Shown: one piece after another, positions 12,326 to 58,274 of the stretch
Numbering within the stretch: the stretch's first letter is position 1
How the letters are laid out: each line of letters begins with the position of its first letter
Position numbers and translations under genes: made by a program
The notes under the pieces: generated by a model
The model's database searches: none
What the model was told of the DNA's origin: nothing
What the model saw: only the letters and a program-made list of their open reading frames with translations
DNA from: a virus
Virus record (IMG/VR): IMGVR_UViG_3300046167_000733
Location: 1 to 64,000 of that record
Direction: 5' to 3' (one strand)
DNA: 64,000 bases

Positions 12326-13004
12326 ATGTTTATACACGAATCAGTAAAACTCACAGAGATGGATGCCGTCACAACCGAGAAGGGTCGTAAATATCGTACA
12401 CCCGAAGGTGTTGACTTGCCCTCTATCACAACAGTACTTTCAATCCTGTCAAGAGATAGTATTGCGAAGTGGCGTAAGAGAGTAGGAGCAAAAGAAGCAA
12501 ACCGTATCTCTGGTAAGGCATCGGGTCGTGGTACTCGCGTTCATGAGATTACCGAGAAGTATATTGACAATAACCCTAACTACAAAGAAGGGTACACCCC
12601 TGATATCATTCATTCCGTTCAATGTGATGAAACCAATCCTTGATGGATTTATTGGTAAGGTCTATGCTCAAGAAGCACCTCTGTATTCCAATCACCTTGG
12701 AGTTGCAGGACGAGTTGACTGCGTTGCTGAGTTTGATGGAGTACTATCCATCATCGACTTCAAGACCTCAATGAAACCTAAGAAGAGAGAATGGGTCAAG
12801 AACTACTTTATGCAGGAAGCGGCATATGCCATAATGTGGGAAGAACGTACAGGTCAACCTATCACTCAACTTGTCACTATCATATCAGTAGATGGCAAAG
12901 ACAAACCACAAATCTATGTAGAACATCGTGATAACTGGATAAACACTCTGAGAGACACAATAAAAAAGTATAATGAGGAAAACTCTAGTTCCGTTTTGTT
13001 ATAA
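12326..13004 (+). CDS. PD-(D/E)XK exonuclease (frameshift near 12615)
   Basis: LPSITTVLS, RGTRVHE, AGRVDCV, IIDFKTS, YFMQ.AAYA motifs. Confidence 0.85.
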
Positions 13005-13007
13005 ATA
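13000..13007 (+). promoter_or_regulatory. T4-type late promoter
   Basis: TATAAATA upstream of the 13-20 kb cluster. Confidence 0.7.
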
Positions 13008-13045
13008 GATGTATAATTTAACTTTATTACAAATGGGACTTATTG

Positions 13046-14335
13046 ATGTTTTCTTTTTTAAATTTTTTATCAGAAGAGGTTTCTAAAAAAGATTTTCCTT
13101 CAGAGATTTTTGGTGAACTTTCTGTCGAAAAAAAATCTGAAAATAGTAAGACCGCAATATTCGTTGTTAGGTCAAATGATAGGTTAGATGACCGTGATGA
13201 AATACTACGTAACCTAGACCAAGCAGGAATCAAAGCAGAAGTTCGAAATAAAACAGGACAATCTGTTGACCCAATCTTCATTGATTCTCATTTTGATGTT
13301 AAGGTGATTCTTCTTATAAAACCTAAATCTGGTGGTATGGGTGAAACAACCCTTAATGCATCTATTACTGAATTGTTTCCACTCATAGCATGGGAAAAGA
13401 ACTACAGGATGGGAACTAGTATTGACAAGTTCTATGACTTCTTATTAGAACAAGAACCAACAACCCTTAAATGTGTTCTTGGTAAAGACTCTAAAGCGGC
13501 AGTAGATACTATTCAAAAAGCATCTGAATCTTCTAAGTTCTCAGAGAAAATGTTAAACGCAATGGGTGTTTATAAATATCTAGTCGATGAGAACAAAGGT
13601 AAACCTATCAAGAATGTTTATTGGGGATATCGTGCGAAACCTACAGGTGTTCCAAAGGGACATCCAGGAGATATCTTTTTAGAATTTAGTGATGGAATGC
13701 TAGGAGTATCACTCAAAGCAGGTGGTAAGAAAACAAAAGAACCTAAACTTAATACCTATGTCAACCCTATCTTCACTGCATTCAACAAAGAACGCAACGT
13801 AATTGCATTACGCAGAAAATTACATACCGAAGTGTATTCTAAGATTGAAGGTATGCCTCCATCTGGTTCATATGATAAGTCCAAGAAAAGAGATACCTCA
13901 AAATTACTTATTAAACTGAATAAAGAAGATAAAGCAAGATATGAAAAACTTTATGACCAACACCTAGAGATTTGTAGACAGAGTGTTATTGACTTATTTA
14001 ATCAAAATAAAGAAAATACTCTCGAATATATTCGTTCTGCAATACTTCGTGATGCACCTTCAGTTCCTACAAAGGTTATAAAAGCAGTTGAAGATAATTT
14101 TGAAGAAGTTACAGAAACAGACGAACTAGGTGTGTTCTTACCTCTTGTTAAGTTTGTAAAAGCATATGCATCAAAAAGTTCTAAACAGAATTGGTTTTTA
14201 GAGTTAAAATCTCGTGAACAAACCATTACGATGGCAATGTCAATTAGAACTAATAAGAGTGGTACCGCAGGAAATAAAAAGTTAGGGCAGTTCTTTAATC
14301 TTTCAGTTAAATACAATTCGTTGAGTACCGAGTAA
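13046..14335 (+). CDS. restriction-endonuclease-like (PD...SxK) protein with a capsid-targeting-like N-terminus
   Basis: N-terminus MFSFLNFLSEE; HPGDIFLEFSDGMLGVSLK. Confidence 0.6.
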   Translation: MFSFLNFLSEEVSKKDFPSEIFGELSVEKKSENSKTAIFVVRSNDRLDDRDEILRNLDQAGIKAEVRNKTGQSVDPIFIDSHFDVKVILLIKPKSGGMGETTLNASITELFPLIAWEKNYRMGTSIDKFYDFLLEQEPTTLKCVLGKDSKAAVDTIQKASESSKFSEKMLNAMGVYKYLVDENKGKPIKNVYWGYRAKPTGVPKGHPGDIFLEFSDGMLGVSLKAGGKKTKEPKLNTYVNPIFTAFNKERNVIALRRKLHTEVYSKIEGMPPSGSYDKSKKRDTSKLLIKLNKEDKARYEKLYDQHLEICRQSVIDLFNQNKENTLEYIRSAILRDAPSVPTKVIKAVEDNFEEVTETDELGVFLPLVKFVKAYASKSSKQNWFLELKSREQTITMAMSIRTNKSGTAGNKKLGQFFNLSVKYNSLSTE

Positions 14336-15566
14336 TGGAAAAGTTTTCATCTTTCATAACAGAGAATAAGAATACTCACATGACTCATATTGAGGACAAG
14401 GTTCTCTATGGAGGTGTGAAGGGTACACGAGAAGCAATCAATGCATTGCGTGAACTAAGAGATATGCTCGCAGGAAAGACAGACGCAAAACTCTCGGTCA
14501 AGTGGGATGGTGCTCCTGCAATATTCTGTGGACAAGACCCAAGTGACGGAGTAGTTCTTTGTTGCGAAAGAAAGGTATCTTCAATGCGAACCCTAAAGTC
14601 TATAAGACAGACGAAGAGATTGATGCAGACACTTCGGGTGAACTCGCAAAGAAACTCAAAGAGGCATTGAAGTATCTACCCTGACCTTGGCATCACGGGT
14701 GTGATACAGGGAGACTTCTTGTTTTCAAAAGAAGATGTTACCAAAAAAGAAACTATTGACGGACAAAACTATACAACCTTTCATCCTAACACAATCATAT
14801 ATGCGGTTCCTTATGACCAAGCAAAGACTGTAAGAGATGCAAAGATAGGTGTTCGTATGGCATACAACCTATACAGGAAAAGACTTTGCATCAATGAGAG
14901 CATCATATGGTGTTGATGTGTCTAAGTTTAAAAAGACTAAGAATGTCTGGTCACAGGATGCGATGTTGACTAATGTAGGTGAAGCAACACTCACCGCCAA
15001 AGAGACAGAAGAAGTAAATAAACACTTGACAAATTGCGGTAAGTTGTTTAATAAGATATCGGGTTCTACATTAAGAGAACTCGAAGGTAATCAAATGCTC
15101 GCACAACACATAGAACAATACAACAATACATTCGTAAGAGAGGGTCAACTCTTACCTCCAAGTGCATCTCATGTGAACGGACTTATTAAATGGATAGATA
15201 AGAAGTATAAGGAAAGAAATGGATAAACGTAAAACAGACAAGGGAAAGAAGACCCAACAGGATAAACTAGACATTATTATGAAGTTTTTCTCTACTACAA
15301 ACAAAAAATCGTTAATAAATATGTTCGATTTACAAAAAAGTATTGTATTGGCGAAGTTAAAACTTATAAATAAACTTAATAGTATAGAAAATACTGATGC
15401 ATTTGTTCAGACCAAAAAAGGTTATAAGGTTAGGACAGGGGCAGAGGGTTTCGTTGCTATTGACAAATTAGGTGGTGACGCGGTTAAGTTAGTTGACCGC
15501 ATGGAATTTTCGTATAATAACTTTAGTCCAGATGTACTAAAGGGATGGGACAAACCAAGGAAGTAA
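14335..15566 (+). CDS. DUF6267-like protein with ATP-dependent ligase/nucleotidyltransferase motifs (several apparent indels)
   Basis: MEKFSSFITE start; MTHIED; motif I KWDG, III IQGD, IV EGFV, V VKL spread over four ORF fragments. Confidence 0.75.
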
Positions 15567-15567
15567 A

Positions 15568-15969
15568 ATGAGCAATAAACCTCTAGGATTCAATGCATTC
15601 ACTCAAAGTGAAGACCCCGAAGTTGAAACAGAAGCACTCAACATTCAACAAAGACTTGCACGTAAACGTTCGTTCGCAAAGAACAAGGCAAAGATTGCTT
15701 TGGGTCGTAAACGTGCGGCACGTAAAGTTGCGAGTATGGATGTCCTAAAGAAACGTGCAGTCAAAGCGGCACGAAAGAAAGTTGCTCTCAAACTTACAAA
15801 AGGTATCCCTTCATCAGAACTGAGTATGGCACGTAAGATTGATATAGAAAAGAAACTTGAGTCGAAAAAAGGTAAGATACAAAAGATTGCCAAGAAGTTA
15901 CTACCCGCTATCCGTAAAAAAGAGTTAGCAAAGAAACAGAAGAAGGGCACTAACGAGGACGATAAGTAG
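15568..15969 (+). CDS. Lys/Arg-rich basic protein, probably virion-internal
   Basis: Acidic leader ending VETE, then a highly basic helical body. Confidence 0.65.
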   Translation: MSNKPLGFNAFTQSEDPEVETEALNIQQRLARKRSFAKNKAKIALGRKRAARKVASMDVLKKRAVKAARKKVALKLTKGIPSSELSMARKIDIEKKLESKKGKIQKIAKKLLPAIRKKELAKKQKKGTNEDDK

Positions 15970-15972
15970 ATA

Positions 15973-17442
15973 ATGATTAAGAATTTTAAAGACTATTTGA
16001 TTGAAGAGACCCGTGAGGTCTACTTCACGTTTGGAAGAATGAATCCACCCTACAATAGGTCACGGAAAAGTATTAGACACGATTGCAACTAAAGCATCTG
16101 GTGCAGACTGGAAAGTCTATGTATCTCATAGTACTGGACCCAAAGACCCATTAACATATTCAGATAAGATTAAACACCTACGCAAGATGTTCCCAAAGCA
16201 TGGTCGTAACATCATAGTCGATAAGAGTGTCAAGAATGTATTCGATATTGCGAGAGTATTATACGACGCAGGATACAAACGCATCAACATGGTAGTTGGA
16301 GAAGACCGACTACGAGAGTTCGATGTACTACTCAATAAATATAACGGCAAGAAAGCACGCCACGGATTCTATAACTTTGAGTCAATCAAGAGTAGTATCT
16401 GCAGGGTCGTAGAGACCCTGATGCCGAAGGTGTAGAAGGAATGTCTGCATCTAAACAACGTGCCAACGCAACAGATAATAACTATCAAGCATTCACTTTG
16501 GGTGTTCCAAAGAATATGAATGATAAAGATACACGCAAACTCTTTAATGACGTAAGGAAAGGTTTAGGTCTTAAAGAACAAACAACATTTAAAAATCACA
16601 TCGACCTTGGTAAGAAAGATGATACTCGTGAGGCATATGTCAACGGGACTCTATTTGAACTGGGCGATACAGTAGCAATAAAAGAGAGCGATGAGATAGG
16701 AACCGTAACCGTATTAGGTGCGAACTATGTTATCGTTGAATGTGGCGAAAGGAAGTTACGAAAATGGTTAGACGCAGTTCAGTTAGTTGAACGACAAGAC
16801 CCTGATGTAAAGGATAAGAAGGGAACACAACCTGCCAAGTATTACGCAAAGGATGCTAAAGGTAAGGAGATGTCTAAGTCTACCAAATCGAAACGCGACG
16901 CCCACTTTAAGAAAGGTACGGCAATGGATGACGATAATCCAAATGCCTACAAACCTGCTCCGGGTGACAAATCAGCGAAGACGAAACCAAGTAAGTATAC
17001 CAAAGACTATGAAAAGATGTTCGGAGAGAACGCAGGGGAAATAGGCACAGACAAACTAAAAAAGAAATACACAGACGATACACCACTAGAAGAAATCTTT
17101 GGAAAGCATATTGACCTATCGGGTCGTCCTTTCCTATCAAACTTTGATGGTGTTGTCAACGGGGATATTCACAGAAAGATTATTCGTAGATGGATAAAGG
17201 ATGTTGCGAGAAAGAAGTTTGATGCAACTCAAGCACAAAAACATTTAGGAGACCTCGTTAGACTCATAGGTGGTAATATTAATAATGTCCAAAAAACACT
17301 ATTTAAAATCTTTGATAGGAAGGCATTGCCCGCGCGTCTTGACTATCGTAAAACAAGAACATTTATGAAGTCAGATGTAACAGTCAATAAAAAAGACCTC
17401 GCAAAGAGAATAACAGAAACACGAAGAAGGTTAAAGAAATGA
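15973..17442 (+). CDS. HIGH-superfamily (cytidylyltransferase-like) nucleotidyltransferase with C-terminal extension (indels near 16048 and 16390)
   Basis: MIKNFKDYLIEE start; FTFGRMNPPTIGH after removing one C; MVVGEDR; MSASK.R (KMSKS-like). Confidence 0.8.
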
Positions 17443-17675
17443 CATCTAGTTTCAAAGAATTTATTACCGAAGCAGACGAAGCACTCAAGAAGAAGAGTGA
17501 AAAGTCTGGAGTATCTTATGGCGTTTTGAAGAAGGTTTATGATAGAGGAGTTGCCGCGTGGAGGACAGGACATCGTCCAGGAACCACTCCTCAACAATGG
17601 GGATATGCACGAGTAAATGCATTCATAGTCAAAAAGAAAAAAGGTGGTCTGAACCACGATAAGGATTTAGCGTAA
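17439..17675 (+). CDS. DUF5824-like small protein with a capsid-targeting-like N-terminus
   Basis: MTSSFKEFITE; LKKVYDRGVAAWRTGHRPG.TPQQWGYARVNAF. Confidence 0.75.
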   Translation: MTSSFKEFITEADEALKKKSEKSGVSYGVLKKVYDRGVAAWRTGHRPGTTPQQWGYARVNAFIVKKKKGGLNHDKDLA

Positions 17676-19983
17676 TGAAAAACATAAACGAAAATGTAAT
17701 CAACAAGATGAAAAAGATTGTCAAGGACAAACAAGCAATGAAGATTGATGGTGTTATGGTTGACCTCTATACTGCCTCTGCGGTTACTAAAATATATGAC
17801 ATTGTAAATCCTGCCAATAAAAAGAAGATGGAAAAGATGTCTCCACAAGGTCTTGCGACTGCCGCGTTCAAGATACTGGGTAAGAAAGAAAGTGTTTCTG
17901 AAGAGAAGGCAACCCCTGAAGAGAAAGCAGAACTTGCATTGAAACATGCTAAAGAAACTGAATCACTCAAAGATAAGCAAGGAAGAGAAAAAGAAACTCT
18001 AATGCAACAGAGAAGATGCCAGTGGTATGAACCCTAAACAGAAAATGAAGTTCGACCAACTTATGAAAAAGTTAAAAGGTGGTAAGGAACATATGAAGTT
18101 CAAACGCATGGCAGATAACCCTGTTGAGGGTGACGACATGTTCCACGGATATGTCAAAGACCTTGCAATGAAAGAAGCAGTAGATTTCTCAGATGCACAA
18201 TTATCAAAAATGAAGAAGGCATACTCAACTCTCAAACACATTGACCCGTCCTCTCAAAACTATAAGAAGTTGAAGACATCGATTCGCAAGTTAGATGTTA
18301 ATAGACTAGAACAACTTGCACGAGCAAAAATTAAGTTTGTGTCTACGATTGCGGCGGGTGAGTACGCAATAAAAAGTGGTAAACGATTACACGCAAGAGA
18401 CTATCTGGAGTCAACTGAACTTGAAGAAAGTGTCAAGATATCTTTCCATAGTAAGGGTGCGAAAACTAAGTGGATGAAGAAACAAGGAGTTGCTTCAAAG
18501 GAAATCATAAACCAAACGCCTACAAGTGTTGAGTTACCTTCTAGATGGAAAGACCTTTCAAAGAAAAAAGACCACGACGAAATCTTCTCAGTTATAACTG
18601 AATATACAACTGTGTCTCCTAAGATGGCAAAAGTATTTGATAGTCTAAAAGTAGGTGATAAAATCGCATACAAAACTAAAAGATATTCCAGTGATGGTCA
18701 TAAAGTCACAAAAAAGGAAATGCTTCGACACAACCAAGCAGGTATAGAACGAATTACTCTTGGAAAAGGTGTATATCTTTTAAAGAATGAAAAGACAAAA
18801 GAAGTGATGATGAAATCAGGTAATATGCCAGTTACAATTATTGATTTGGTAAAAGAATCATTAAACGAAGCACCGAAACCTTTCGGGCGGGTTGGACCAC
18901 CCATACCGAAACCATCACAAGTTCGTTCTGCAATATCAAGAGTTAAAAAACAACTGATGAAAAAGTATAAACAAAAAGGTGGATACGAAAACTTCGGTCA
19001 AAAAGAATTAGAAAAAATGAAAACTCAGTTCAATTACAATCCTTCTGGTGAACCAGATGAAAGAGAAATTGCAAAAATGTTACGTGCATTCGATGATTGG
19101 GCAATGGACTATGATGGTGACATGAGAGAAGGTATAATAGAAAAGGCAATGACTCTTGGTGGTACTAACGCACCTTCTGGGAGAGACATACATGGGTGAT
19201 AAAGGTATCCAAAAAATGGTTGCACTATCTAAAAAGAATCCTAATATCGAATACACTGTTAAGTCAGACAACTTTGGTGATTTCAAAGCACATTGGTTGA
19301 AGAATGGTAAGTTCGCAAAACGAACTGTTGCAAACATCAACTTTGACATGGATAAAAATGCTGTTCGTGGTGTACCAAAGGGCAAAACTGTTAAGAGTAC
19401 TATCTTTGTATTACGATATAGTGTCAATGAAGGTGTCCAGATGGAAAATGATGAGTATGATAACGAAGGTGGAATGGCACTGAGTCAACTCAGAACTGCG
19501 AAGTCTGCGGTAGAAGATTTAATGTCATCTATAAAAGAGATGGACAATCTACCTGAGTGGGTTCAATCTAAGTTAACAAAAGCAGTTGACTATATGGATA
19601 GTGTCCGTGACTATATGGCAAGTGAAGAAGGTGAAGAACCTGTCGAAGAGTCAATGGCGCGTGCTCGTGCAGATGCGAGACGAGATATGGGTGGTAGAGG
19701 TGCGCAAAAAGGTATGGCGCCCCTGAAGAAAGATGTTGACAATGATGCAACAGACGGAGACCGCAAAGCGGCATCCAAACATATCATACAACAACTCAGA
19801 AAAGCGGCAGACCTACCAAATGGTGCAGAAGTTGAGTTCAAGAATGGTAAAGGTAAAGTAGACCGAAATAGTGCTCAGATGGTTCTCAAGAAATATCTTG
19901 CGATAAAGAAACCTATGGACAAAGAAAAGTTCCAAGCAAACATCAAGTCTCTTTCTGATGTAAAGAAAATATTAGGTAGATAG
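17675..19983 (+). CDS. modular Lys-rich polyprotein, probable internal head protein (three ORF-track fragments joined by indels near 18008 and 19180)
   Basis: Upstream frames run open across both junctions; short basic modules are separated by hydrophobic-x-E sites. Confidence 0.55.
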
Positions 19984-20511
19984 TTGTTGAAGTTTACGGA
20001 ACATACGAACTGTGGTACATCTGATTGTTGTAATCAATGTTCATCTTTGATTGAAGACAATTGGTATCGTGTAGGTTCCGAGAAGTACTATGAGTATTTC
20101 CGTGAGGCACGAGACAAGTATTATGAAGGCAACCTAGAAGTAACAGGTAATGACCTTGAGATAATAGAGAGTAACCTTGGTGAGTTTGCTACATTCAACG
20201 GAGATAATGTTGCGTTAGATTGTATCTTCGAGGAGGAAGAACCTGAACTGAACAAACCGAAACGCGGTGGACCAAAGAAGTATTACGTACATGTCAAAGA
20301 CCCCACGACAGGTAATATTAAAAAGATTTCGTGGGGAGACACTACAGGATTAAAGGTGAAACTGAATGACCCTGCCGCACGTAAGTCTTTTGTTGCACGA
20401 CATAAGTGTGATACAAAGAACGATAAGATGACCGCAGGGTATTGGGCATGTAGACTACCTCGTTATGCGAAACAACTAGGATTGAGTGGAGGAGGAAACT
20501 TCTTTTGGTAA
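19984..20511 (+). CDS. DUF6321-like protein with N-terminal Cys cluster
   Basis: ELNKPKRGGPKKYYVHVKDP..RKSFVARHKC..AGYWAC; TTG start. Confidence 0.7.
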   Translation: MLKFTEHTNCGTSDCCNQCSSLIEDNWYRVGSEKYYEYFREARDKYYEGNLEVTGNDLEIIESNLGEFATFNGDNVALDCIFEEEEPELNKPKRGGPKKYYVHVKDPTTGNIKKISWGDTTGLKVKLNDPAARKSFVARHKCDTKNDKMTAGYWACRLPRYAKQLGLSGGGNFFW

Positions 20512-20759
20512 ATCCTTATTGTGATAATAACAATGTAAGAACTTTCTCTGAGGAAGTTGACGAACTTGATTTGATATGGCATCGTGATAGAGAGGACAGA
20601 AGGATTGTAGTTGAGTCTGGTAACGGATGGAAACTTCAAAAGGACAATCAACTTCCTATCGTGATGGAACAGAATAAAGAATACAATATAAAGGCGATGG
20701 AGTATCATCGTATAATAAAAGGGTGCGATGATTTAGTTATTCGCATTTTTGAAGAGTAA
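20505..20759 (+). CDS. small cupin-like protein
   Basis: WHRD.EDR...W.LQ.DN.LP...YHRIIKG. Confidence 0.65.
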   Translation: MVNPYCDNNNVRTFSEEVDELDLIWHRDREDRRIVVESGNGWKLQKDNQLPIVMEQNKEYNIKAMEYHRIIKGCDDLVIRIFEE

Positions 20760-20765
20760 AATAAG

Positions 20766-20773
20766 TATAAATA
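20766..20773 (+). promoter_or_regulatory. T4-type late promoter
   Basis: Intergenic TATAAATA. Confidence 0.75.
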
Positions 20774-20811
20774 GAAGTAGAATATTTCTACATCAAATGG
20801 GAAACTGATAA

Positions 20812-21090
20812 ATGGCAGACACACAAAAAGAAAGATTAGACCGTATAGAGTTTAAACTTGACCAGATGGCAGAAGTCATGGTCAGTCTCGCACGAGTTGA
20901 AGAGAAGTTGCAGGCAAGCGAGGAAGTTCGCACGAATGCAGTAGAGAGAATGAATAGGTTCTCTGTGAAACTTGACGAAATAGAGAAGGTCTGTGATAGT
21001 AATCACGGAACAATAAAGGTTATAAATAAAATAGTATGGTTGATAAGTGCCGCAATAATTGCGGGAACTATCAACGTAATCTGGATGTAA
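20812..21090 (+). CDS. coiled-coil protein with C-terminal TM
   Basis: Heptad pattern, then hydrophobic IVWLISAAIIAGTINVIW. Confidence 0.7.
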   Translation: MADTQKERLDRIEFKLDQMAEVMVSLARVEEKLQASEEVRTNAVERMNRFSVKLDEIEKVCDSNHGTIKVINKIVWLISAAIIAGTINVIWM

Positions 21091-21104
21091 ATAGGGAGAT
21101 ACTA

Positions 21105-22507
21105 ATGAAAACATCTGATATAAACAATCTTGGTAATGCGTATCGTTCTATATACGAAGCAAAGACCAAAGAAGAAGAAGTTTCTGATAACAAAGACTTC
21201 AAACCTCATATGATGTATGACCCTGAGACAGGAAAAGGTTACAAGGCAGAGAAACCTGAAGACCACGAACGTATGTCAAAGATGGGTTATACTCACGAAG
21301 AACCTGATATGGTAAAAGAGAAAAAGTTACCGCGTCAAATGCTTGACCCAAAGAAAGATGTTATGGTCGTCAAGAATAATAAAGTACTTGTGGTTGACAA
21401 GTCCAAAGAAAAAGAGTATCTCAAAAAAGGTTGGGGTCTTGCAGAACAGAAGAAGCAGTATCCCCTGAACAACAAGCGGCAATCGCCATAAACAAAAAAG
21501 AGAAAGAAGAAATGAAAAACGAAGGTAGCGTAAAAGACCTCGCAATGAAAATAGATAAAGTTGTTGCGAAGATGAACAAGGACAGTAAACTCAAATCATT
21601 TGCAAAGAAGTTTGCTTCAATGGCAATGGATACAATGGACATAGAAAAGTCTCTAGAGAAAGTACTACCAAGTTCTGTATCTGGTGCAGTGATGATTGGA
21701 TTACTAGAAGGTAAGACAAAGAGTGAAGATGCATCACAGTTCGTTGCCGCCGCTAGACAAGCAAAGAAAGATGGTAAAGATACTTTTATATTTGCGGATA
21801 AAGAGTATCCTGTTACTTGTAAAGAAGTAGAAGAAGCAGAAAAGAAACTTGACCCTGTTGACGATGCCGCGAACGATAAGAAGTTCAAAGACCGTAAGGA
21901 CAAAGACATTGACAACGATGGTGATGTAGATGATAGTGACGAGTACTTACACAATCGTCGTGCTAAAGTTGATGACGAAATCGATGGTGGTAAGAAACCT
22001 GCTAAGAAAGAAGAAGAAGAAAAAGACCCTAAAAAGAAAGTTGTTGCTAAGTCTCCTAAGACTGCAGAGATTTCTAAGATAGGTGAAGACTTTGTTGCAA
22101 TGTTAGAAGCATCACTTCTTGAGAAAGCAGAACCCGAAGCAATGGATGATAAAGAATCACCAAAAGGTAAAGAGTTCATTGCGAAACACAAGAAGTCTGA
22201 GAAAGACCTTGAGGATAAAGAAGAAGAAGCAGAAGAGGAAACTCCGAAAGCAGGAAAAGTTACCAAAGAGAAATCTGGTAAACGCACTTCAGATAGTACT
22301 GTAGGTGATAAAGAGGTTGTTAAATCAACTGAAGCACCTATAAAAGAAATGACCCTTGTAGATATGGCACGCGCCCATCTTGCAGGAGAAAAGGTTGACT
22401 TCTCAACAGGTAAAGTAGTTAAAGAGAAAAATCCTTATGATGGTCGTATGAAACTTGCAAAGGAATTCATGCAACGTATGGATAAGAGAAAGGGTGTAAA
22501 AAAATGA
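21105..22507 (+). CDS. highly charged virion/prohead-core-like protein (indel near 21445)
   Basis: FKPHMMYDP and DKDIDNDGDVDDSDEYLHNRR motifs, many xxE sites. Confidence 0.6.
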
Positions 22508-22764
22508 TTAGACTTTTAGGAACACAAGCGGCATGTGGCACTACATCTGGTGCGGCATCTACATTTGGTGACTCAAATGTAGTACGTTTGTTTAATGGAG
22601 GAACCGCAGTTCACTTGGTAACTCTTGAAAAGGCAGACGGAACCGATATCGGTACTATCTCAATCAACGCAAAAGCAGATGTATTATTGCGTAAATCCCC
22701 TACTGACAAAATCTTTGCCGCGAATGCCGCAGTATTAGGTGTAGCAGTAGGATTCAGTTATTAA
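22504..22764 (+). CDS. small beta-rich hypothetical (virion) protein
   Basis: ATGA-coupled ORF in a late cluster. Confidence 0.65.
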   Translation: MIRLLGTQAACGTTSGAASTFGDSNVVRLFNGGTAVHLVTLEKADGTDIGTISINAKADVLLRKSPTDKIFAANAAVLGVAVGFSY

Positions 22765-22780
22765 TTAAAGAGAGAAAATT

Positions 22781-23122
22781 ATGAGCAAGATACAAGCACC
22801 CGCATGGTGTGAACACGCAGTACCAACAGCAAATGGTTGGGAAGACCCAACTAGTGGAGAACTATTCAAGTCAGGTGGTTTTACACCAGAACAAATAGCA
22901 GAATGGCATGGTGACCTACCTGAACCTGCTTCACCCCCACCTTCATTAGAAGAAAGACGTGCCGCATCAATGTTGACAGAAGCACCTGTAGGTAACAGGT
23001 CTCTGGATGAGATGACCAAGGTAGAGTTAGAAGCACTAGGTCGTCAACACGGTATTGAACTTGATAGAAGAAAAAATAAAAAGGTTCTAGTAGAAACTAT
23101 GAAGGACTTACTAGAAGACTAA
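22781..23122 (+). CDS. hypothetical protein with C-terminal HeH/Rho-N-like motif
   Basis: LDEMTKVELEALGRQHGIELDRRKNK. Confidence 0.65.
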   Translation: MSKIQAPAWCEHAVPTANGWEDPTSGELFKSGGFTPEQIAEWHGDLPEPASPPPSLEERRAASMLTEAPVGNRSLDEMTKVELEALGRQHGIELDRRKNKKVLVETMKDLLED

Positions 23123-23153
23123 GTAGAAGTATAAACTTTTACTTGGATACATA

Positions 23154-23510
23154 ATGCAACTGACTAAAGACAATATTGTACTCTATGCCGCTAAGAACTA
23201 CCATACTCCTAAAAGCATAGACAGTGAAGAATTCTTTGCAGACTTAAAAAGATTTAAGTACATAAAAAGACTTCTCATTAGATATAGCAACACAGGTGAG
23301 ATATCTGAAAGATTGATATTGAATCACCTTATTGTTATATTCAATGTCTTTGGTTATGAAGCAGGTTTGAATATGTTAGAACTAAGAATAGAGAAGGAAC
23401 ACTGGGTAGCACTAAAACCATTTCTAATCTTTCTTAAAGCAATAAGAAACGATATGTATACCAACATTCATATGGATAAGAGTGTTGTTATGAAACTAAG
23501 AGAGATATAA
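23154..23510 (+). CDS. conserved T4-like phage hypothetical protein
   Basis: YAAKNY..EEF..DLKRFKYIKRLL..ERLILNHLIVIFNVFG. Confidence 0.75.
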   Translation: MQLTKDNIVLYAAKNYHTPKSIDSEEFFADLKRFKYIKRLLIRYSNTGEISERLILNHLIVIFNVFGYEAGLNMLELRIEKEHWVALKPFLIFLKAIRNDMYTNIHMDKSVVMKLREI

Positions 23511-24128
23511 ATGGGAATATTAAAGAGTGCGGCAGACCTAGTCTACACAATCCGCTTCCTAAAAATGCTCGTTACTCCTTTCGAAAAGATGGGTGCATTC
23601 AAAGCAGGTATCATAGACAAAGACGGTAATAAACTTATAAAAAGTGGTGACCCATTTTTTAATAAAATTGCAAATCGTGAAGCATATTCAGCACACTACA
23701 CTTCATTCATTAGATTAGTAATCAATCTCAAAAAACTCATGGCAAAAGTTCCGGGTGGTAAATCTGTTATCGCAAGGTATGGTGCGGCACTACTTCTCAT
23801 CAAAGAAGATGGTGACCTCTCTGACAAACAAATCAATATGATACATGAAGAGACAGGTATCGACATTCTAGATTGTCTTGTAGAACAAACTCAGTGGTAT
23901 ATGCTAGAGGGTAAAGAACTTTCACAAGGTGTATATCGTTCTAAGTTTGATACTGTAATCACATCGGGTGAAGAGATTGTAACTAGAGGTGATAAGGTTC
24001 GTGTGGTCGAAGGACATGCATTACCTATTGATAGTGTATTGGGTATAGACATATATGAAGGTATTCATCTGAACTCTGGACAGAAGATGTACTTCTCAAC
24101 AGGAGAGATAGAAAATGAAAAACTTTAA
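23511..24128 (+). CDS. conserved T4-like phage hypothetical protein
   Basis: ADLVYTIRFLKMLVTPF..AFKAGIIDKDG..YT.F.RLV.NLKKL. Confidence 0.75.
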   Translation: MGILKSAADLVYTIRFLKMLVTPFEKMGAFKAGIIDKDGNKLIKSGDPFFNKIANREAYSAHYTSFIRLVINLKKLMAKVPGGKSVIARYGAALLLIKEDGDLSDKQINMIHEETGIDILDCLVEQTQWYMLEGKELSQGVYRSKFDTVITSGEEIVTRGDKVRVVEGHALPIDSVLGIDIYEGIHLNSGQKMYFSTGEIENEKL

Positions 24129-24300
24129 ACAATTTTTAGAACAAACAAATGAGATGACAGGGACAGGTGCGGTAGCAGGGGCAGGAGATGACTCTGAGAC
24201 AGTTCCAGTATATATAGATAAAGAGAAGAAGAAAAGACACAAAGTCTTGAAGAAGTTTATTCAAGCACAAGAAGATAGTAAACAAAAATGGAGTAGATAA
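24115..24300 (+). CDS. small protein with a capsid-targeting-like N-terminus
   Basis: MKNFKQFLEQTNE. Confidence 0.6.
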   Translation: MKNFKQFLEQTNEMTGTGAVAGAGDDSETVPVYIDKEKKKRHKVLKKFIQAQEDSKQKWSR

Positions 24301-24808: not shown

Positions 24809-24882
24809 GGTGGTTCTGAAGATGTGGAAAAGTATAAGTAGTACTACCCCCAAAAAATAAATATGTGTCCTATGGAGATGAA

Positions 24883-26866
24883 ATGACAGTGAAGATTGAC
24901 CGCAAGAAAGATAAACTATTAGCGGATTATGCGGTAGGGATGTTGAAAGATTTCTACCTTAGAGGTAATGAGAAAAGTCCCCAAGACGGATTCAAAAGGG
25001 CATCAGAGGCATGGAGTAAATACCGAGACGAGATAGACGACGAACTCGCACAACGTCTTTATAATTATGTGTCACAGAAGTGGTTCATGTTTGCGTCTCC
25101 AGTATTGTCCAATGCACCTAACGGAACTGGTAAGAGTAAGGGGATGCCTATCTCTTGTTTCCTTACCTATGTTCCTGATACACTTAGAAGGACTTATTGG
25201 TCACACTTCAGAACTTAGATGGTTATCCGTTTATGGTGGAGGTGTCGGTGGTCATTGGTCTGATGTAAGAACAGTATCTGACATTGCTCCTGGACCCATG
25301 CCATTTCTTCATACCGTAGACGCAGATATGATTGCATACCGACAAGGTAAAACTCGTAAGGGTTCCTATGCGGCATATATGGATATCTCTCATCCCGACA
25401 TACTTGAGTTTTTGAATATGCGTATTCCTACTGGAGACGTACAACGTAAGGCATTGAACCTACATAACGCAATTAATATCTCTGATGAGTTTATGACTGC
25501 GGTAGTAGAAGGTACAGACTTTGACCTACGAGACCCCAAAGACAACTCAGTAAAAGAAACTATTGATGCTCGTAAACTCTGGGAAAGAATACTGGAGACA
25601 AGATTTAGAACAGGGGAACCTTATCTAAACTTTATTGATACTGCCAACGCAACTCTACCACAACCCCTCAAGGATTTAGGTCTCAAGATAAATGGTTCGA
25701 ACCTTTGTAATGAGATACATCTACCTACGAGTGCCGATAGAACTGCGGTGTGTTGTTTGAGTTCTCTCAATCTAGAGTATTATGATGAGTGGAAAGATAC
25801 ACCTATCATTCGTGACCTCGTAAGAATGCTTGATAATGTATTGGAATACTTTATAGAGAAAGCACCCGATACTATTACTCGTGCGAAGTATAGTGCTCAA
25901 CGCGAAAGGTCTATTGGTCTTGGTGCGATGGGTTTCCATAGTCTCTTACAGAAACACGGAGTTGCGTGGGAGAGTGAAGCGGCAAGAGATATCAATACGA
26001 CTGTGTTTGAACATATCAATAGAGAAGCACACGCAGAAACAGAGTTACTCGCAGAAGAACGCGGTGAGTATCCTGATGGTATCGGTAGTGGTAAGAGAAA
26101 CTCTCACTTACTTGCGATTGCTCCTAATGCGTCCTCTGGTATTATTCTCAGTACAAGTCCTTCTATAGAACCTCTAAAGGCAAACGCATATACGCATCGT
26201 ACACGGGCAGGTTCCTTTCTCGTAAAGAATAAGTATCTTACACAACTCCTTGATGAGAAGGGTGAGAATAACGATTCAAACTGGACTTCTATTATTACAA
26301 ACAAAGGTTCAGTACAACATCTACCTTTCTTTACGGAAGGAGAGAAGTCAGTATTCAAGACCGCACAAGAGTTAGACCAAATGTGGGTAGTAAAACATGC
26401 CGCAGAAAGACAAGAGTTTATATGTCAAGGTCAATCGGTCAATCTATTTTTCCCATCAGGGGCAGACAAGTCTTATGTAAATAAGGTTCATCTATCCGCG
26501 TGGAAGAAAGGTCTGAAAGGATTATACTATCTACGAACAGAAGCAAAACAACGTGCTGAGAATGTATCGGAGAAAGTAGAAAGAGTTGCCCTTGAGGGTG
26601 ATAAAAGAAATGTAGTCTATGGTAAGAGAAACTGCCCATATTGTCAACTCGCAAAAGAGGAGATGAAGTTGCGCGGTATACCTTATGACTATGTTGATTT
26701 ACAAGAGGTAGGTAAGACTGCCAGAGAAGTAACAGGTCGTGATGTCAAAACTGTACCACAGATATATATCCAAGGAGACTATATCGGTGGGTATGATGAC
26801 TTTATGATTTGGTTAGAGAAACCCTTTGAGAGTGACGACGGAGAATGTCGTGCTTGTGAAGGTTAG
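24883..26866 (+). CDS. nrdA: class Ia ribonucleotide reductase alpha subunit with fused glutaredoxin domain (indel near 25188)
   Basis: PISCFL, SNLCNEI, VCCLSSLNL, APNASS, KGLYYLR; Grx CPYC/TVPQI/IGG; terminal ECRACEG. Confidence 0.93.
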
Positions 26867-40901: not shown

Positions 40902-41612
40902 TTACTTAACGGGAGTTCTTTTGAATGAAGTAATACCCTTTTTCTTCATCTCTGCTTTCTTCCAATTTTTGTAGATAGCAGTTGTTGGTTCTTTGTTTAT
41001 CCAAGGTTTAAGTTTCTGCATCGCTTTATTGCATTGAGCAGTTAGGTCTTCTATTGTTGTTGTAGTTGCATTCTCTATCTCAATAAACTGTTTACCAAAC
41101 ATTCTCTTGAAATCATTACGATTTGCCTGAACTCTTTTCCAAGTCTGCGTGACTAACTTTGGTCCAATGGTTCTTTTCCTATTCTTATCTCTTTCAATAG
41201 AAGTCTCAAGTGGGGTGTTGACAAAAATCATACCAACCTCATAACCCATGTCCATCATTGCTTGACACTCTTCTTTCACATCGTCAAGGTCTTTACCTGT
41301 ACCGTCAACTATGAGACCTAATCTACCCTTCAACCATTGTTCCTTTTGTTTATCAGTAAGTATCTTTGCATCTCCACGGATTGCTTGACCCTGTGCTGAC
41401 GCAATATCATCGGGCGTCAATGTAAGTCCTGCCTTTGCGAGCATTCTTTCATAATTGGGGTCACTATTTGATACCTTCATTCCATACGCTCTTAAACCTG
41501 CCAGTGCTATGACAAAACTTTTACCTGACCCTGCGCCACCTGCCATCATGATTGCCTTGAAAGAAGCAGTGTCTTCCAAACCTTCTGATATAAAACTTTT
41601 AAAATCTAACAT
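40902..41612 (-). CDS. P-loop kinase (AAA_33 / zeta-toxin / Pnk-kinase-like) with a capsid-targeting-like N-terminus
   Basis: MLDFKSFISE; MAGGAGSGKS, NSD, LIVDGTG, FV.TPLETSIER...R. Confidence 0.8.
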   Translation of the reverse strand: MLDFKSFISEGLEDTASFKAIMMAGGAGSGKSFVIALAGLRAYGMKVSNSDPNYERMLAKAGLTLTPDDIASAQGQAIRGDAKILTDKQKEQWLKGRLGLIVDGTGKDLDDVKEECQAMMDMGYEVGMIFVNTPLETSIERDKNRKRTIGPKLVTQTWKRVQANRNDFKRMFGKQFIEIENATTTTIEDLTAQCNKAMQKLKPWINKEPTTAIYKNWKKAEMKKKGITSFKRTPVK

Positions 41613-42610: not shown

Positions 42611-42618
42611 TATTTATA
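42611..42618 (-). promoter_or_regulatory. T4-type late promoter (minus strand)
   Basis: TATTTATA = TATAAATA on the minus strand, upstream of an AGGAG RBS. Confidence 0.75.
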
Positions 42619-53616: not shown

Positions 53617-55052
53617 ATGCAAAATAATAATCAAAAGGCACAATATACAATAACATCTGCTGTCATTCACGCGGATAGGTTTACTATTACGGGTAGTAAA
53701 AGTGAAACGAGACTTATAGACTTTGAGGTTTTTAGTAATTTAGTAGAACTTGTTATCTATGAATCTCTTGACAAATTATATCTTACAGGGCAAGTTTCTA
53801 TTTTAGACAAACAAGGAATTTTTTCAACTATACAATTTCAAGGAACCGAAAAAATAACCTTTGCGATTAGTACTGCAGATGTAAATGATACTCCAATTAT
53901 ATTCAATAAAACTTTTATAATGAGTGAGATTATAAGTCAAACTAAACATAAATCGGGAAAGTCAAGTCTTTTTGTATTCAACCTTATAGACGAGCATGGT
54001 TTTCTTGGTCGTGTTTCTAAGATAAGTAAATCCTATAACGGAAGTCTTGAAACAATTATAAAAAGAATTTTACAAAACGAGTTAGGAAGGACAGTTGATA
54101 TTGCCTATACAGGTGCTAAGAGTGGTGATGAAGAGTTTAGTATTCAAGGAGATATCACATGTATCATTCCAAATATGACTCCAATCACTGCTATAAATTG
54201 GTTGTGTAATAGAATAACAACAGATAATGGCACTCCTTACTTTGCGTATTCAACACTTAATTTACCCAATCAAAAGGGCGAGAGTGACGAATCACAATTA
54301 GATGATGAAGATAAAGAAAAAGGGTAATCTTATCAGAATTGGTAACTTAGATACTATGTTGACTCAAGAGGCATTCAATAATATACCGTTTGTATACAAC
54401 CCCAACTCAAGAAGTGGTTTACAGGTCAAGTGTTATTGAACAACTCTTTAAAATTAAAAACATAAGTTTTGATAGAACATCGAACACATTGAAATTATTA
54501 GAACTTGGGGCAGTTTCATCAGAATACTCAAACACAAATTTAGGAACAGGTGAAGTATTCACAACAAAACATGTGTTGAGTGACCAACTTAGAAATCTAT
54601 CAAGTAATTCTATCATAGGCAAGAATGAAGAAACCACACAGAATGTTTTTGATGAAGAATTATTATTGAAAGGTTCTAGGGTTGAGACATACTCTGCAAA
54701 AAATTATCATACCATTACCTCTACAGGAACATATGGTAATTTGAAAAGTTATCATGACGAGACAGACGAGAATAAATTTAAAGTAAAAATCTCTTCAACC
54801 GCAATTAAAAATGTTCTTCATAAAAATAGTATAACTATTGTTGTAGAAGGGGCATCACTTGCTATTGGTAGAGTTACTGTTGGAGACATTATAAATATTG
54901 TTGTTGTAAGTGATAATGTGGATGACGAAGGTAGGGGTGTACCTGATATGAAAAATTCAGGAAAACATTTAATATACGACCTCAAGCATACCTTTTCAGG
55001 TGAGATACATAATGCTACATTAACCCTTTGTAAATTGGAGTCTATTCAGTAA
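53617..55052 (+). CDS. baseplate hub protein (gp27-like; indel near 54322)
   Basis: IYES..K.YLTG...I.D, G.EKI, IIPN..P..AI.WL, SG..LI....H; position between gp53 and gp5. Confidence 0.7.
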
Positions 55053-55864
55053 TGTTAGAATATTATGGTGATAGCACTCGTTGGTTCATAGCAACAGTTG
55101 TAAACTCAACTCCCCCTGCAGGGTATGAAGGGCGAGTAAAGATACGCATACACGGATTGCATAGTTCATCTACACAAGATATTCCAGAAGACCATCTACC
55201 TTGGGCACAATGTGTTCTCCCCACAACAGAAGGTGGAGTATCGGGTATCGGTAAGATACCTCGTGTGTTACCTAGTGCATTAGTGTTCGGAATGTTTATG
55301 GACGGAAAAAGTTCACAGACACCTATTGTTTTGGGTTCACTTCCTAAAATAGAAAGTCCTTCTGAAATACAAAAACTTACAAAACAAAGTAGTGTTGAAC
55401 AAGGTGCGGTTCTTGCAAGTACATTAGATATAAAGAATGCAGTACTTGATGTTCCTGATGCAACAATCAAAAACAACAGGATTGAGTTTTGTTTACAGTT
55501 TTTTCTTAACTTAGGATACAGTTATATTCAAGCAAAAGGTATTACCGAAAATCTTTCACAAAAAGGAATGGTTTCAGGATTTAGGGGAGAAGATGAAAGT
55601 GGTCGGTTTGGTGTTGCAGAATGGTCAGGAGAAAGATTTAAAAATCTAAAAGCATTCTCTGAATATTTTAAACGATTTACAACACAACTTGAATTTATTG
55701 CATTTGAACTAAACGGAACACAAAGGTCTGCCAACATTCGTTTATTACAGACAGATAGGTATAGTGGAGAAAAGGGTTCCTTAAATATATTTGCTAAATA
55801 CTACTTGAAATTAGATTTGCTTCAATTAGAACAACTTGAAAGCAAAGGAGATTATAGTGAGTAA
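55052..55864 (+). CDS. gp5: gp5 N-terminal OB-fold fused to a phage-tail-lysozyme-like domain
   Basis: WFIA.V..GRVKIRIHGLH..LPWA..V.G.FMDG..Q.P.VLG; then FG.A.W...R...L...QL.FI..EL. Confidence 0.8.
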   Translation: MLEYYGDSTRWFIATVVNSTPPAGYEGRVKIRIHGLHSSSTQDIPEDHLPWAQCVLPTTEGGVSGIGKIPRVLPSALVFGMFMDGKSSQTPIVLGSLPKIESPSEIQKLTKQSSVEQGAVLASTLDIKNAVLDVPDATIKNNRIEFCLQFFLNLGYSYIQAKGITENLSQKGMVSGFRGEDESGRFGVAEWSGERFKNLKAFSEYFKRFTTQLEFIAFELNGTQRSANIRLLQTDRYSGEKGSLNIFAKYYLKLDLLQLEQLESKGDYSE

Positions 55865-58274
55865 AATAATCAATAGTTTAAATACTGAACTAAAAAGAAA
55901 GTCTGATAAACTTGCTCAAAGAACTTTGATGCCTAAAGTTAAAAAGATTAAAAATCTTGATGGCGCAATTAGATATGCGTCAGGATTAGATGAGATTCAA
56001 GTTAATACTAATTTCAATGTTCCTACTTTTGGTGGTGCAAACAGATTAATAGGAACTCAACTTGATAGATTAAATATTCAAACACAATCTATAATAGGAA
56101 ATAACACAGACGGAGAAGTTTTTGGTGGATTTGCTAAGTCAATTGGTAATACAGGTGGTGAAGTAGGTCTTGTTAAGTTTGTGAGTACTGCAGGGTTAGA
56201 TAATGTTGTTACTCCAAACTTTAAAGTATATGCTTCTGGCGCACCACAAGCAATTAGTATAGCAAGTAAAGACATAGAGAAAAAGATAAATGCTCAAAAA
56301 GTAGAAATAAATACTTTTCTTGATAGTCTACCTCAAGTGCTTGGAAGACCTTCAGGTGGTTTCCTTGGTTCCATTCTCAAAGTTGCAGGTATAGCAGGAG
56401 GTTTAAATGGTTTGTTACAACAGATATCTCCTCTTGCAAATATATCAAATCAATTAAATAATATCAAAGACCAAGTTTTAGACCAAACAGGAATAAGCGG
56501 TTTTCTTGACCAAGTTAATGGTCTGGCAGATAATGTAACAAACTATGTTAATACTTCTCTAGATGCAGTTTCAACTTCTCTTGGAGAAGCAATCGGTAAT
56601 CCTTTATCAGAATTAGATAATGCTTTAAGTATTAATATTGGAGAAGAAACTTTTAGCACTAACCTTGGTGGATTCGCGAACGATTTATTAGAAAGTGTTA
56701 CTGGAGACCTTCGTTCTCGTACAAACAATTTTATTTCAGGAGCAATACCTGATGTTGAAATAGGAGGATTAGTTAGTGGTATTGTAAGTGATGATATTAC
56801 GGAAAGAGTATCTTCCATTGGTAGGATAACTCAATATGACAATGTAGTAAGAGAAAACCTTACTTTATTTGAACCTTGGAGTGCTGTTGAAAATGCTTCA
56901 TCTCCAAGGGATGCAATTTTTCAGATAGAAACGAACGGTAAGAAGAACGGAGCAAGTGCGGCAAATATTTCTTATGTGCAAGGTTTATATGCATCAATAA
57001 TATCAAAGACCGAAAATAACACTTTCAACGCAGGACTATCTTCTGTTATTGCTATAGGTTCAAGTCCTTTACTTTCTGTCAATCCATTACCCCTTTCAAA
57101 GAAGTTTACATATGTTTCGTCCATAGAAGAACTTGAACTAGAGATATCAAGTAGACTTGTAGTAAGTGCCGCAAGAGATGTAAGTAGTGTTGTTATTCAT
57201 GCAACCGAAACATTCACAAATAAGAATATAGGTGCAGAAGAAATAGATGCAATACAGAAAAAACTAGGTGAAGATGAAGTAGGTTATCACTATGTGATTA
57301 GAAGAGACGGCAGACTTCAACGCGGAAGACCTGTTGAGAAAGAAGGAAGTCATTGTCCCACAGGCAACTATGATAAAACTTCTATAGGTATTGTAATGGT
57401 AGGGGGTATTAATCGTGCCTCTACAGAACAGTCCTTTGAAACCTCTAGTGCTTCATTTACACGCGCACAATATAACACATTAGAACAATTCCTTCAAGTG
57501 TTTTATAATAACTTTTCTGGTGGAGAAGTATTTGGTCATAGTGATATTGAAACAGATGAACTAGACCCTTACTTTGATGTGAGTGAATATATACTATCGT
57601 TATTTGGTAAAATAAATTCTTCATCATTAGGTGTTCCTGAAATTGAAGGTGATTTTGAACCTACTGCTCCTGAAGGTATAACTGAAGAAACAGGAACAAA
57701 TGCTCCAACAACTCGTGTTCAAGTTACTCCCGAAGAATTAAATGTTGCTCCAGACGAAGTTCCAAAGGATGTTGAAGTTGTGGTTGATAATGAATCTACG
57801 TTTAAAGTTATATATGAACCACAAAAGAAAAACTTCAATTTACCTGTTGACCCTGATGCTTTATTAGATGATATACCAGAAAAGTTACAGAAACTTGCGA
57901 ATTATATGAAAAGAGATATAAGAGTTACAAGTGGATATCGTGACGAAGAACATAATAGAAGGGCAGGTGGCGCAAAGTTCTCTCCACATTTATCACGAAA
58001 GGCAGTAGATATAAGTAGAAGTGATAGGGCACCAACAGTAGGAGGATGGAGATACACATCGTCCTTGATGAGTGATGCCCAAGTTGCTGATTTAGTGCAA
58101 AAAGCATCCGAGTTGGGATTTAAAGGTATTGGAATATATGATGGTTATTTGCATCTTGATACTAGGTCAGGAAAAAAATGTTGGGCAACATCCAAAATAT
58201 TGAGAGTTTCTTCTATTCCAAGATTTGCACAGATAGCAACAGTTCTAAGAAATAATGATTGGGATAATGTATGA
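55857..58274 (+). CDS. baseplate-associated protein with N-acetylmuramoyl-L-alanine amidase (T7-lysozyme type) and peptidase M15 domains
   Basis: VVIHAT..GYHYVIRRDG..GRP..SIGI..VGG..GH.D; then TSGYR...N..GG..SPH...AVDI..GIGIY...LHLD.R; GTG start with AGGAG RBS. Confidence 0.82.
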   Translation: MSKIINSLNTELKRKSDKLAQRTLMPKVKKIKNLDGAIRYASGLDEIQVNTNFNVPTFGGANRLIGTQLDRLNIQTQSIIGNNTDGEVFGGFAKSIGNTGGEVGLVKFVSTAGLDNVVTPNFKVYASGAPQAISIASKDIEKKINAQKVEINTFLDSLPQVLGRPSGGFLGSILKVAGIAGGLNGLLQQISPLANISNQLNNIKDQVLDQTGISGFLDQVNGLADNVTNYVNTSLDAVSTSLGEAIGNPLSELDNALSINIGEETFSTNLGGFANDLLESVTGDLRSRTNNFISGAIPDVEIGGLVSGIVSDDITERVSSIGRITQYDNVVRENLTLFEPWSAVENASSPRDAIFQIETNGKKNGASAANISYVQGLYASIISKTENNTFNAGLSSVIAIGSSPLLSVNPLPLSKKFTYVSSIEELELEISSRLVVSAARDVSSVVIHATETFTNKNIGAEEIDAIQKKLGEDEVGYHYVIRRDGRLQRGRPVEKEGSHCPTGNYDKTSIGIVMVGGINRASTEQSFETSSASFTRAQYNTLEQFLQVFYNNFSGGEVFGHSDIETDELDPYFDVSEYILSLFGKINSSSLGVPEIEGDFEPTAPEGITEETGTNAPTTRVQVTPEELNVAPDEVPKDVEVVVDNESTFKVIYEPQKKNFNLPVDPDALLDDIPEKLQKLANYMKRDIRVTSGYRDEEHNRRAGGAKFSPHLSRKAVDISRSDRAPTVGGWRYTSSLMSDAQVADLVQKASELGFKGIGIYDGYLHLDTRSGKKCWATSKILRVSSIPRFAQIATVLRNNDWDNV

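Follow-up and report, generated by a model that had tools for sequence, protein, structure and literature searches.

Leader peptides resembling the T4 capsid-targeting sequence on unrelated enzymes of a marine T4-like phage: a putative injected cargo

The DNA analyzed here (the window) is the first 64 kb (64,000 nucleotides) of the 107.8-kb IMG/VR contig IMGVR_UViG_3300046167_000733, a genome, with an estimated completeness of 65%, of an uncultured T4-like myovirus. Six proteins encoded in it, otherwise unrelated, begin with one kind of short N-terminal leader. We propose, with a probability of about 0.72, that this leader peptide is the functional counterpart of the capsid-targeting sequence (CTS) of bacteriophage T4, and that the tagged enzymes are loaded into the head, cut there, and delivered with the DNA. 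Understood in this way, the CTS mechanism of T4 would also operate in a distant marine lineage, where it serves new cargo.

The leaders start at positions 13046, 14335, 15973, 17439, and 24115 on the plus strand and at 41612 on the minus strand, and all six positions given in a preliminary description of this DNA were confirmed (6/6). Their common pattern is M-x(2-3)-[FY]-x-x-[FY]-[IL]-x-E. The T4 register (aromatic at 4 and 7, Ile or Leu at 8, Glu at 10) is matched exactly at 13046, 14335, and 41612; the two aromatic positions are also kept at 24115, giving four leaders in which they are in exact register. At 15973 (F5, Y8, L9, E11) and 17439 (F5, F8, I9, E11), the register is shifted by one residue. 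When the first 12 residues were removed, pairwise comparison of the six proteins revealed no significant similarity, so that the description of one pattern on unrelated proteins stands. An I/L-x-E cleavage-type site is present in 5/6, but the 24115 leader deviates, having Gln at position 10.

The loose motif [FY]xx[FYL][IL]xE was found at 5 of 153 crude gene starts, whereas its internal frequency would predict 0.23 (P = 5e-6), a count that leaves out 15973 because of its broken frame and uses a motif read off the data. Since the loose motif had been defined from the data, a second test was made with a rule taken beforehand from T4 mutagenesis and applied in exact register, which gave 3 matches versus 0.011-0.020 expected (P = 2e-7). 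Equal frequency in early or metabolic genes had been named as an outcome that would speak against the idea; the motif does not occur on other genes of the genome, apart from a seventh tagged protein encoded outside the window just before the prohead protease gene. This protein has 70 amino acids (aa; genome 95993-96205), and its leader is very close to the T4 CTS.

The T4 CTS is formed by residues 1-10 of the internal proteins IPII and IPIII (PMC8442874). According to amber-suppressor analysis, targeting depends mainly on residues 4 and 7, and processing on 8 and 10; when position 10 holds an acidic residue other than Glu, cleavage is stopped and targeting is unaffected (PMC9026906). The four conserved positions of the leaders described here are exactly these four functional positions. 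Because the leader at 24115 has Gln at position 10, and because T4 position-10 mutants are still targeted, it is predicted by analogy to be targeted but not cut at Gln 10. The same Gln is present in C48C1 CDS0102, the only orthologue seen.

The machinery on which such a leader would act is encoded in the same genome. A gp21-type prohead protease (Peptidase_S77, E = 1.6e-39) lies at genome 96265-96705, and the head genes follow the T4 order: portal, small core proteins (gp67-like and gp68-position), protease, scaffold, and capsid. The scaffold protein contains 17 [IL]xE sites, the protease itself begins with an L-I-T-E site at its N-terminus, and the N-terminal segment of the capsid protein has, shortly before the conserved region, an F-L-T-E at residue 55, which we read as a predicted maturation cut by likeness to T4 gp23. 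The likeness to T4 comprises a 10-residue N-terminal leader with aromatics at 4/7 and I/L-x-E at 8-10 on unrelated proteins, a gp21-type protease and scaffold core in the genome, and, presumably, late expression. There are also differences. T4 internal proteins are small and basic, whereas the cargo here consists mostly of mid-sized enzymes; the first aromatic residue is Tyr in T4 and Phe here, and the register here may shift by one residue. Furthermore, the T4 internal-protein genes form one locus, whereas the tagged genes of this phage, a distant marine T4-like virus, are divided between a replication-proximal cluster and a distant operon.

The T4-like character of the contig was supported by PHROG matches to baseplate wedge, hub, and tail tube cap proteins in the window and, beyond it, by genes, arranged as in T4, for the portal, prohead protease, scaffold, major capsid protein, sheath, and tube. 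By identity, the nearest major capsid proteins are those of phage C48C1 (69%), the Methylophilales phage Melnitz (63%), and the Pelagibacter phage HTVC008M (60%), followed by those of cyanophages. A megablast search of the region against phage records returned only a single 70-nucleotide (nt) match in the cytidylyltransferase gene; thus, there is no near-identical or close isolate among them.

Conservation of the leader was examined in 25 related IMG/VR loci (74-90% identity) and 240 database homologues. Among the orthologues of the 429-aa protein and of the DUF6267 protein in the 25 loci, the aromatic, I/L, and Glu residues were kept while the other leader positions changed freely. The codons used at the conserved positions are synonymous alternatives (TTT/TTC, TTA/CTA/CTG/TTG, ATA/ATC/ATT, and GAA/GAG), which argues that selection acts on the leader at the peptide level and rules out a nucleotide-level signal. 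The distance from Met to the motif varies by one residue in the relatives, and the spacing inside the motif is constant.

The leader is not carried by every homologue of the cargo. Nearly all homologues of the 429-aa protein with at least 60% identity have it, and many below about 60% do not; among the DUF6267 relatives, 111/120 have a strict leader, while the cyanophage orthologues ACG-2014b gp162 and S-SZBM1_141 start right at the domain and lack it. In HTVC008M gp130, the nucleotidyltransferase and a C-terminal DUF5824 form one polypeptide of 597 aa whose junction has no aromatic leader, and in Atu_ph07 gp053 (779 aa) the kinase domain is internal and again has no leader. A separate DUF5824 protein with its own leader, as found here, is what would be expected if every cargo protein that is translated on its own must carry an address. 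Because profiles of DUF5824, phrog_3041, and phrog_12810 align from residue 4-5 of the small proteins, the leader was also considered as a part of these domains, and this was rejected on the basis of the fused HTVC008M and Atu_ph07 junctions. The tag behaves as a modular add-on that is gained and lost. For HTVC008M, the number of register-4 patterns was not above the control, and its kinase and nucleotidyltransferase carry partial motifs only.

The relatives encode further tagged proteins of 123, 90, and 105 aa, and in them a tagged kinase homologue of 228 aa is encoded some 3 kb upstream of the gene for the 429-aa protein. The window homologues of the 123- and 105-aa proteins, at 15568 and 19984, have degenerate N-termini. 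The 15568 protein matches the 123-aa protein of relative L016 (BLASTP E = 3e-30) and C48C1 CDS0088 (7e-27), both with canonical leaders, and the 19984 protein matches C48C1 CDS0096 (E = 5e-22) and L020:18072-18389 (6e-20). The gene at 15568-15969 is missing from the otherwise collinear relative L006; since tagged homologues occur elsewhere, the cargo set varies among close relatives.

The nucleotidyltransferase family represented at 15973 is widespread in T4-like cyanophages (559 phage records), and the window gene is orthologous to the cyanophage proteins with BLASTP E values of 1e-37 to 1e-56. The leader is kept on Syn9 gp184, P-SSM7_191, P-TIM68, ACG-2014b gp163, S-CREM2 gp154, S-SZBM1_140, and S-SCSM1_91. 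Using liquid chromatography-mass spectrometry (MS) of CsCl-purified virions, S-SZBM1_140 (PMC9146016), S-CREM2 gp154 (PMC10665884), and S-SCSM1_91 (PMC9602691) were each detected. The NMNAT-like or cytidylyltransferase proteins reported from S-SCSM1, S-CBWM1, S-SZBM1, and S-CREM2 virions are orthologues of the 15973 protein (PMC9602691, PMC9146016, PMC10665884), and the virion orthologues examined, those of S-SCSM1, S-SZBM1, and S-CREM2, have the same leader as in the window (3/3). Absence from purified virions of related phages was the other outcome named as speaking against the idea; for the nucleotidyltransferase this was refuted by tagged orthologues in three cyanophage virions.

When the S-CREM2 genome was scanned at every possible start, the strict motif was found at three annotated starts: gp6 (S-adenosylmethionine hydrolase), gp14 (APH-like kinase), and gp154 (nucleotidyltransferase). 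All three are in the virion list (3/3), compared to 52/219 proteins overall. Two proteins with a relaxed motif, gp13 and gp12 (motif at residues 19-25), are in the list too; the annotated GenBank start of gp12 looks wrong. A similar observation was made in C48C1, where the frame of the cytidyltransferase gene (L032, 9067-10410) runs upstream through a canonical leader and the GenBank start likewise looks wrong. In S-SZBM1, the tagged enzyme was detected, and its untagged DUF6267 and phrog_2496 neighbors are not in the detected list. The central idea of the preliminary description, a T4-type CTS on unrelated enzymes, passed every test available, including the two named as capable of overturning it; the description as a whole is supported in part.

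The authors of the cyanophage proteomes commented that these enzymes, like kinases, show 'frequent detection' in virions, without giving a mechanism (PMC9602691, PMC9146016, PMC10665884). Their papers differ from the present analysis in that they report presence and speculate on carriage and describe no targeting sequence or protease site (PMC9602691, PMC9146016, PMC10665884). Full-text literature searches found no paper tying the CTS to cyanophages or marine T4-like phages, and the main text of the Sullivan 2010 cyanomyovirus paper does not mention these proteins. The tag probably accounts for the recurrent nucleotidyltransferase in purified cyanophage particles: the papers could not tell specific carriage from contamination, and a conserved tag together with a head-protease site supplies a mechanism.

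The tagged genes had been described as lying behind late promoters. This holds directly for 13046, where a TATAAATA box is spaced 39 nt before the start, in line with the boxes 38 nt before the baseplate gene at 51638 and 39 nt before the open reading frame (ORF) at 20812. It holds indirectly for the kinase, the last gene of a minus-strand operon ordered box 42618, ORF 42592-42329, ORF 42184-41612, and kinase. The genes at 14335, 15973, 17439, and 24115, in contrast, have no TATAAATA box of their own and would need co-transcription. Outside the window, a TATAAATA box is found 6 nt upstream of the 70-aa gene in the gp68 position (genome 95993-96205).

The proposed mechanism follows the T4 scheme. 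Tagged proteins would be made late in infection and dock onto the prohead scaffolding core through their two aromatic residues. A gp21-type protease would then cut after the Glu of [IL]-x-E. The mature enzyme, freed in this way within the head, would stay there during DNA packaging and leave with the DNA on infection. The cargo would include the 429-aa protein, the DUF6267 ligase-like protein, the HIGH nucleotidyltransferase, the DUF5824 module, the 61-aa protein, and the P-loop kinase; being pre-made, it could act ahead of any phage gene expression. Detection in virions concerns the nucleotidyltransferase orthologues; that the leaders dock and are cleaved, that the other five proteins are packaged too, and that the cargo is injected and active in the host is inferred.

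Several observations weigh against this proposal. The virion evidence comes from cyanophages and not from this phage or its close relatives, and of the six cargo families, the nucleotidyltransferase is the only one with MS support from orthologues. Small proteins with the strict motif (S-SZBM1_191, S-SZBM1_192, and S-SCSM1_30) were not reported in the virion proteomes, and the detected proteins include several untagged ones from the same cyanophage cluster, e.g. S-SZBM1_139 and S-SCSM1_89, 90, and 92. Carrying the tag is therefore not strictly enough for a protein to be detected, and there are other routes into the particle; the depth of MS is limiting for detection. The proteome authors themselves say that their virion preparations might contain co-purified late proteins of high abundance (PMC10665884, PMC9602691). 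In addition, one leader (24115) lacks the Glu of the cleavage site, and among the tagged genes of the window only the first, at 13046, has its own late promoter box.

Three other explanations of the leaders were weighed. The tag might load proteins into the prohead for work inside the head, on packaged DNA or as core and scaffold accessories, so that they would not be host effectors. The cluster lies among Lys/Glu-rich proteins (17675-22507) that resemble internal head or core proteins, and the whole syntenic cyanophage cluster, from mazG to primase/nrdA, gives virion MS matches, untagged 'structural' proteins included. We nevertheless consider this explanation unlikely, because the CTS cargo of T4 (IPI-III and the ADP-ribosyltransferase Alt) leaves the head with the DNA (PMC9026906) and enzymes with nucleotide substrates have no obvious task in a sealed capsid. 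A still less probable explanation is that the leader serves a non-capsid interaction or regulation, as a partner-binding helix, a degradation signal, or a translation-start context, and that the MS matches are late-protein carry-over. Co-purification as raised by the proteome authors and the tagged small proteins undetected in virions would fit it. It does not account for the one-for-one match to the mapped T4 CTS positions or for a leader that ends in a protease site also found in capsid and scaffold proteins; the use of synonymous codons excludes a signal at the nucleotide level, and the strict-motif proteins of S-CREM2 are all in a virion list from which about three-quarters of all proteins are absent.

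A functionless similarity, arising by chance or by recent duplication of a 5' gene segment, may be suspected because the motif is short and its definition followed inspection of the data. Its probability is very small indeed: the rule fixed beforehand from T4 gave P = 2e-7, the leaders of the window genes differ from each other at the DNA level, and the pattern is kept over Kyanoviridae-level divergence (Syn9, P-SSM7, P-TIM68, ACG-2014b, S-CREM2, and S-SCSM1). Statistics and conservation together refute it in practice. The capsid-targeting explanation is preferred; within it, the cargo may be injected and may act against host defense.

The putative cargo enzymes were characterized with varying confidence. 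The kinase is confidently assigned from its sequence to the P-loop kinases, with PF06414 at 39.6 bits (cut-off 22.3), PF13671 at 28.6 bits (cut-off 27), and a G-x-G-S-G-K-S Walker A motif, and the protein at 17439 matches Pfam DUF5824 (E = 8e-19); the identities given earlier for these two proteins were borne out by the Pfam matches. The nucleotidyltransferase reads G-H-G after F-G-R-M-N-P-P once the frameshift is read through and matches the 'cytidyltransferase' families phrog_3041/395 (E = 3e-23); with PF01467 it scores 18.6 bits, under the 21-bit cut-off. PDB sequence searches with the nucleotidyltransferase and the kinase, and profile searches with alignments, gave nothing useful.

DUF6267 (PF19782) was matched by four collinear pieces in the window, with the domain starting at residue 13 and E = 6e-105 for the intact protein of a relative. 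The earlier label 'ligase-fold' is a lead: the K56-W-D-G59 (KxDG) motif is invariant in 17 sequences, but the fold match itself is weak: the model is poor (predicted local distance difference test score, pLDDT, 63), and the best ligase match, to T. brucei REL1 (Z 5.9), is below helical-bundle noise. PDB sequence and profile searches with DUF6267 returned no ligase match.

The 429-aa protein had been called 'nuclease-like', a label that is best kept as a lead. Its AlphaFold model (pLDDT 83.6, leader residues 1-9 disordered) gave no Foldseek match at E <= 0.001, and the sequence has no Pfam match. The weak leads are a Foldseek match to HinP1I (E = 9e-3, TM 0.28), the annotation RE_HaeIII on 10-19% of the members of the nearest named ESM Atlas clusters (score 0.93), and a competing match of residues 5-96 to Pol-beta-type nucleotidyltransferase domains (VIA-align Z up to 8.9). 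The protein possibly has a restriction-endonuclease-like or a nucleotidyltransferase-like fold.

It is plausible that the tagged set amounts to a pre-made toolkit for nucleotide and nucleic-acid chemistry. More tentatively, it is possible that marine T4-like phages, i.e. cyanophages and the pelagiphage and methylophage relatives, routinely deliver a CTS-addressed nucleic-acid and nucleotide toolkit that neutralizes resident defenses before phage expression. If so, its members would be the NMNAT-like nucleotidyltransferase, the ligase-like enzyme, the P-loop kinase, and the nuclease-like protein, and its targets would be defenses acting by NAD (nicotinamide adenine dinucleotide) depletion or by RNA or DNA cleavage. 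The closest functional precedent is T4 Alt, an enzyme loaded in the head, processed by gp21, injected with the DNA, and acting before phage expression (PMC9026906). Alt differs in having another leader and in being processed at its C-terminus too, and there is no ADP-ribosyltransferase here. The anti-restriction Dar proteins of P1 and the ejection proteins of SPN3US and phiKZ-like phages are likewise head-internal, prohead-protease-processed, and co-delivered with DNA, as far as the available descriptions go; by description, they are set apart by belonging to unrelated phages with other propeptides and another assembly hierarchy. The present findings suggest that T4-like phages have used the CTS for enzyme delivery far beyond the coliphage internal proteins, and the tag would offer a simple sequence rule by which the proteins that abundant ocean phages inject could be predicted from their genomes alone.

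Table 1 Positions of the tagged genes, related genes, and promoter boxes (window numbering unless marked genome).
Feature	Position	Strand	Remarks
Late promoter box TATAAATA	13000..13007	+	exact match; heads the cluster; ends 39 nt before ATG 13046
429-aa protein, phrog_2496	13046..14335	+	leader F4, F7, L8, E10; exact T4 register
DUF6267 protein, KxDG	14335..15566	+	leader F4, F7, I8, E10; five single-base insertions
133-aa basic protein	15568..15969	+	longer N-terminus, only motif-like; homologues in relatives have canonical leader
HIGH-motif cytidylyltransferase-like nucleotidyltransferase	15973..17442	+	leader shifted by one; three single-base insertions
78-aa DUF5824 protein	17439..17675	+	own leader; start overlaps stop of previous gene
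175-aa Cys-rich protein	19984..20511	+	truncated motif only; 105-aa homologues in relatives have canonical leader
61-aa protein	24115..24300	+	targeting-type leader F4, F7, L8; Gln at 10
236-aa P-loop kinase (Zeta_toxin/AAA_33)	40902..41612	-	leader F4, F7, I8, E10; last of three-gene operon
Late promoter box TATAAATA	42611..42618	-	heads kinase operon; ends 19 nt before ORF 42592-42329
70-aa protein, T4 gp68 position	genome 95993-96205 (L004:11993-12205)		directly upstream of prohead protease; T4-like leader

In this contig, single-base insertions interrupt the reading frames at 14335 and 15973; close relatives have these genes intact, encoding 406 and 506 aa, respectively. Many genes are split in this manner, among them the nuclease gene at 12326-13004 and the essential genes for NrdA and the large terminase, with further splits at 24865-26866 and genome 90122-91716. 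The insertions were mapped against the intact genes of relative L006. Since they split essential genes and are absent from close relatives, the broken frames are read as sequencing errors of an error-prone assembly rather than as gene decay or pseudogenes.

Some neighboring genes were also examined. C48C1 CDS0086, which has the same position and size as the 429-aa gene, was tried as an untagged orthologue and dropped when BLASTP revealed no similarity. Between the tagged enzymes and the conserved genes at 23154-24128, the region 17675-22507 encodes Lys/Glu-rich low-complexity proteins with almost no family matches, which may be internal head or core proteins. The 118-aa protein encoded at 23154-23510 has 41-47% identity to S-CREM2 gp159, ACG-2014b gp168, S-SZBM1_135, and S-SCSM1_96 and marks the same syntenic block, between the mazG and primase/nrdA genes. 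Farther downstream, at 55052-59959, two separate ORFs (55052-55864 and 58271-59959) make up a gp5-like baseplate hub, and between them, overlapping both, lies an 812-aa ORF with amidase and peptidase domains in the place where T4 gp5 has its lysozyme domain.

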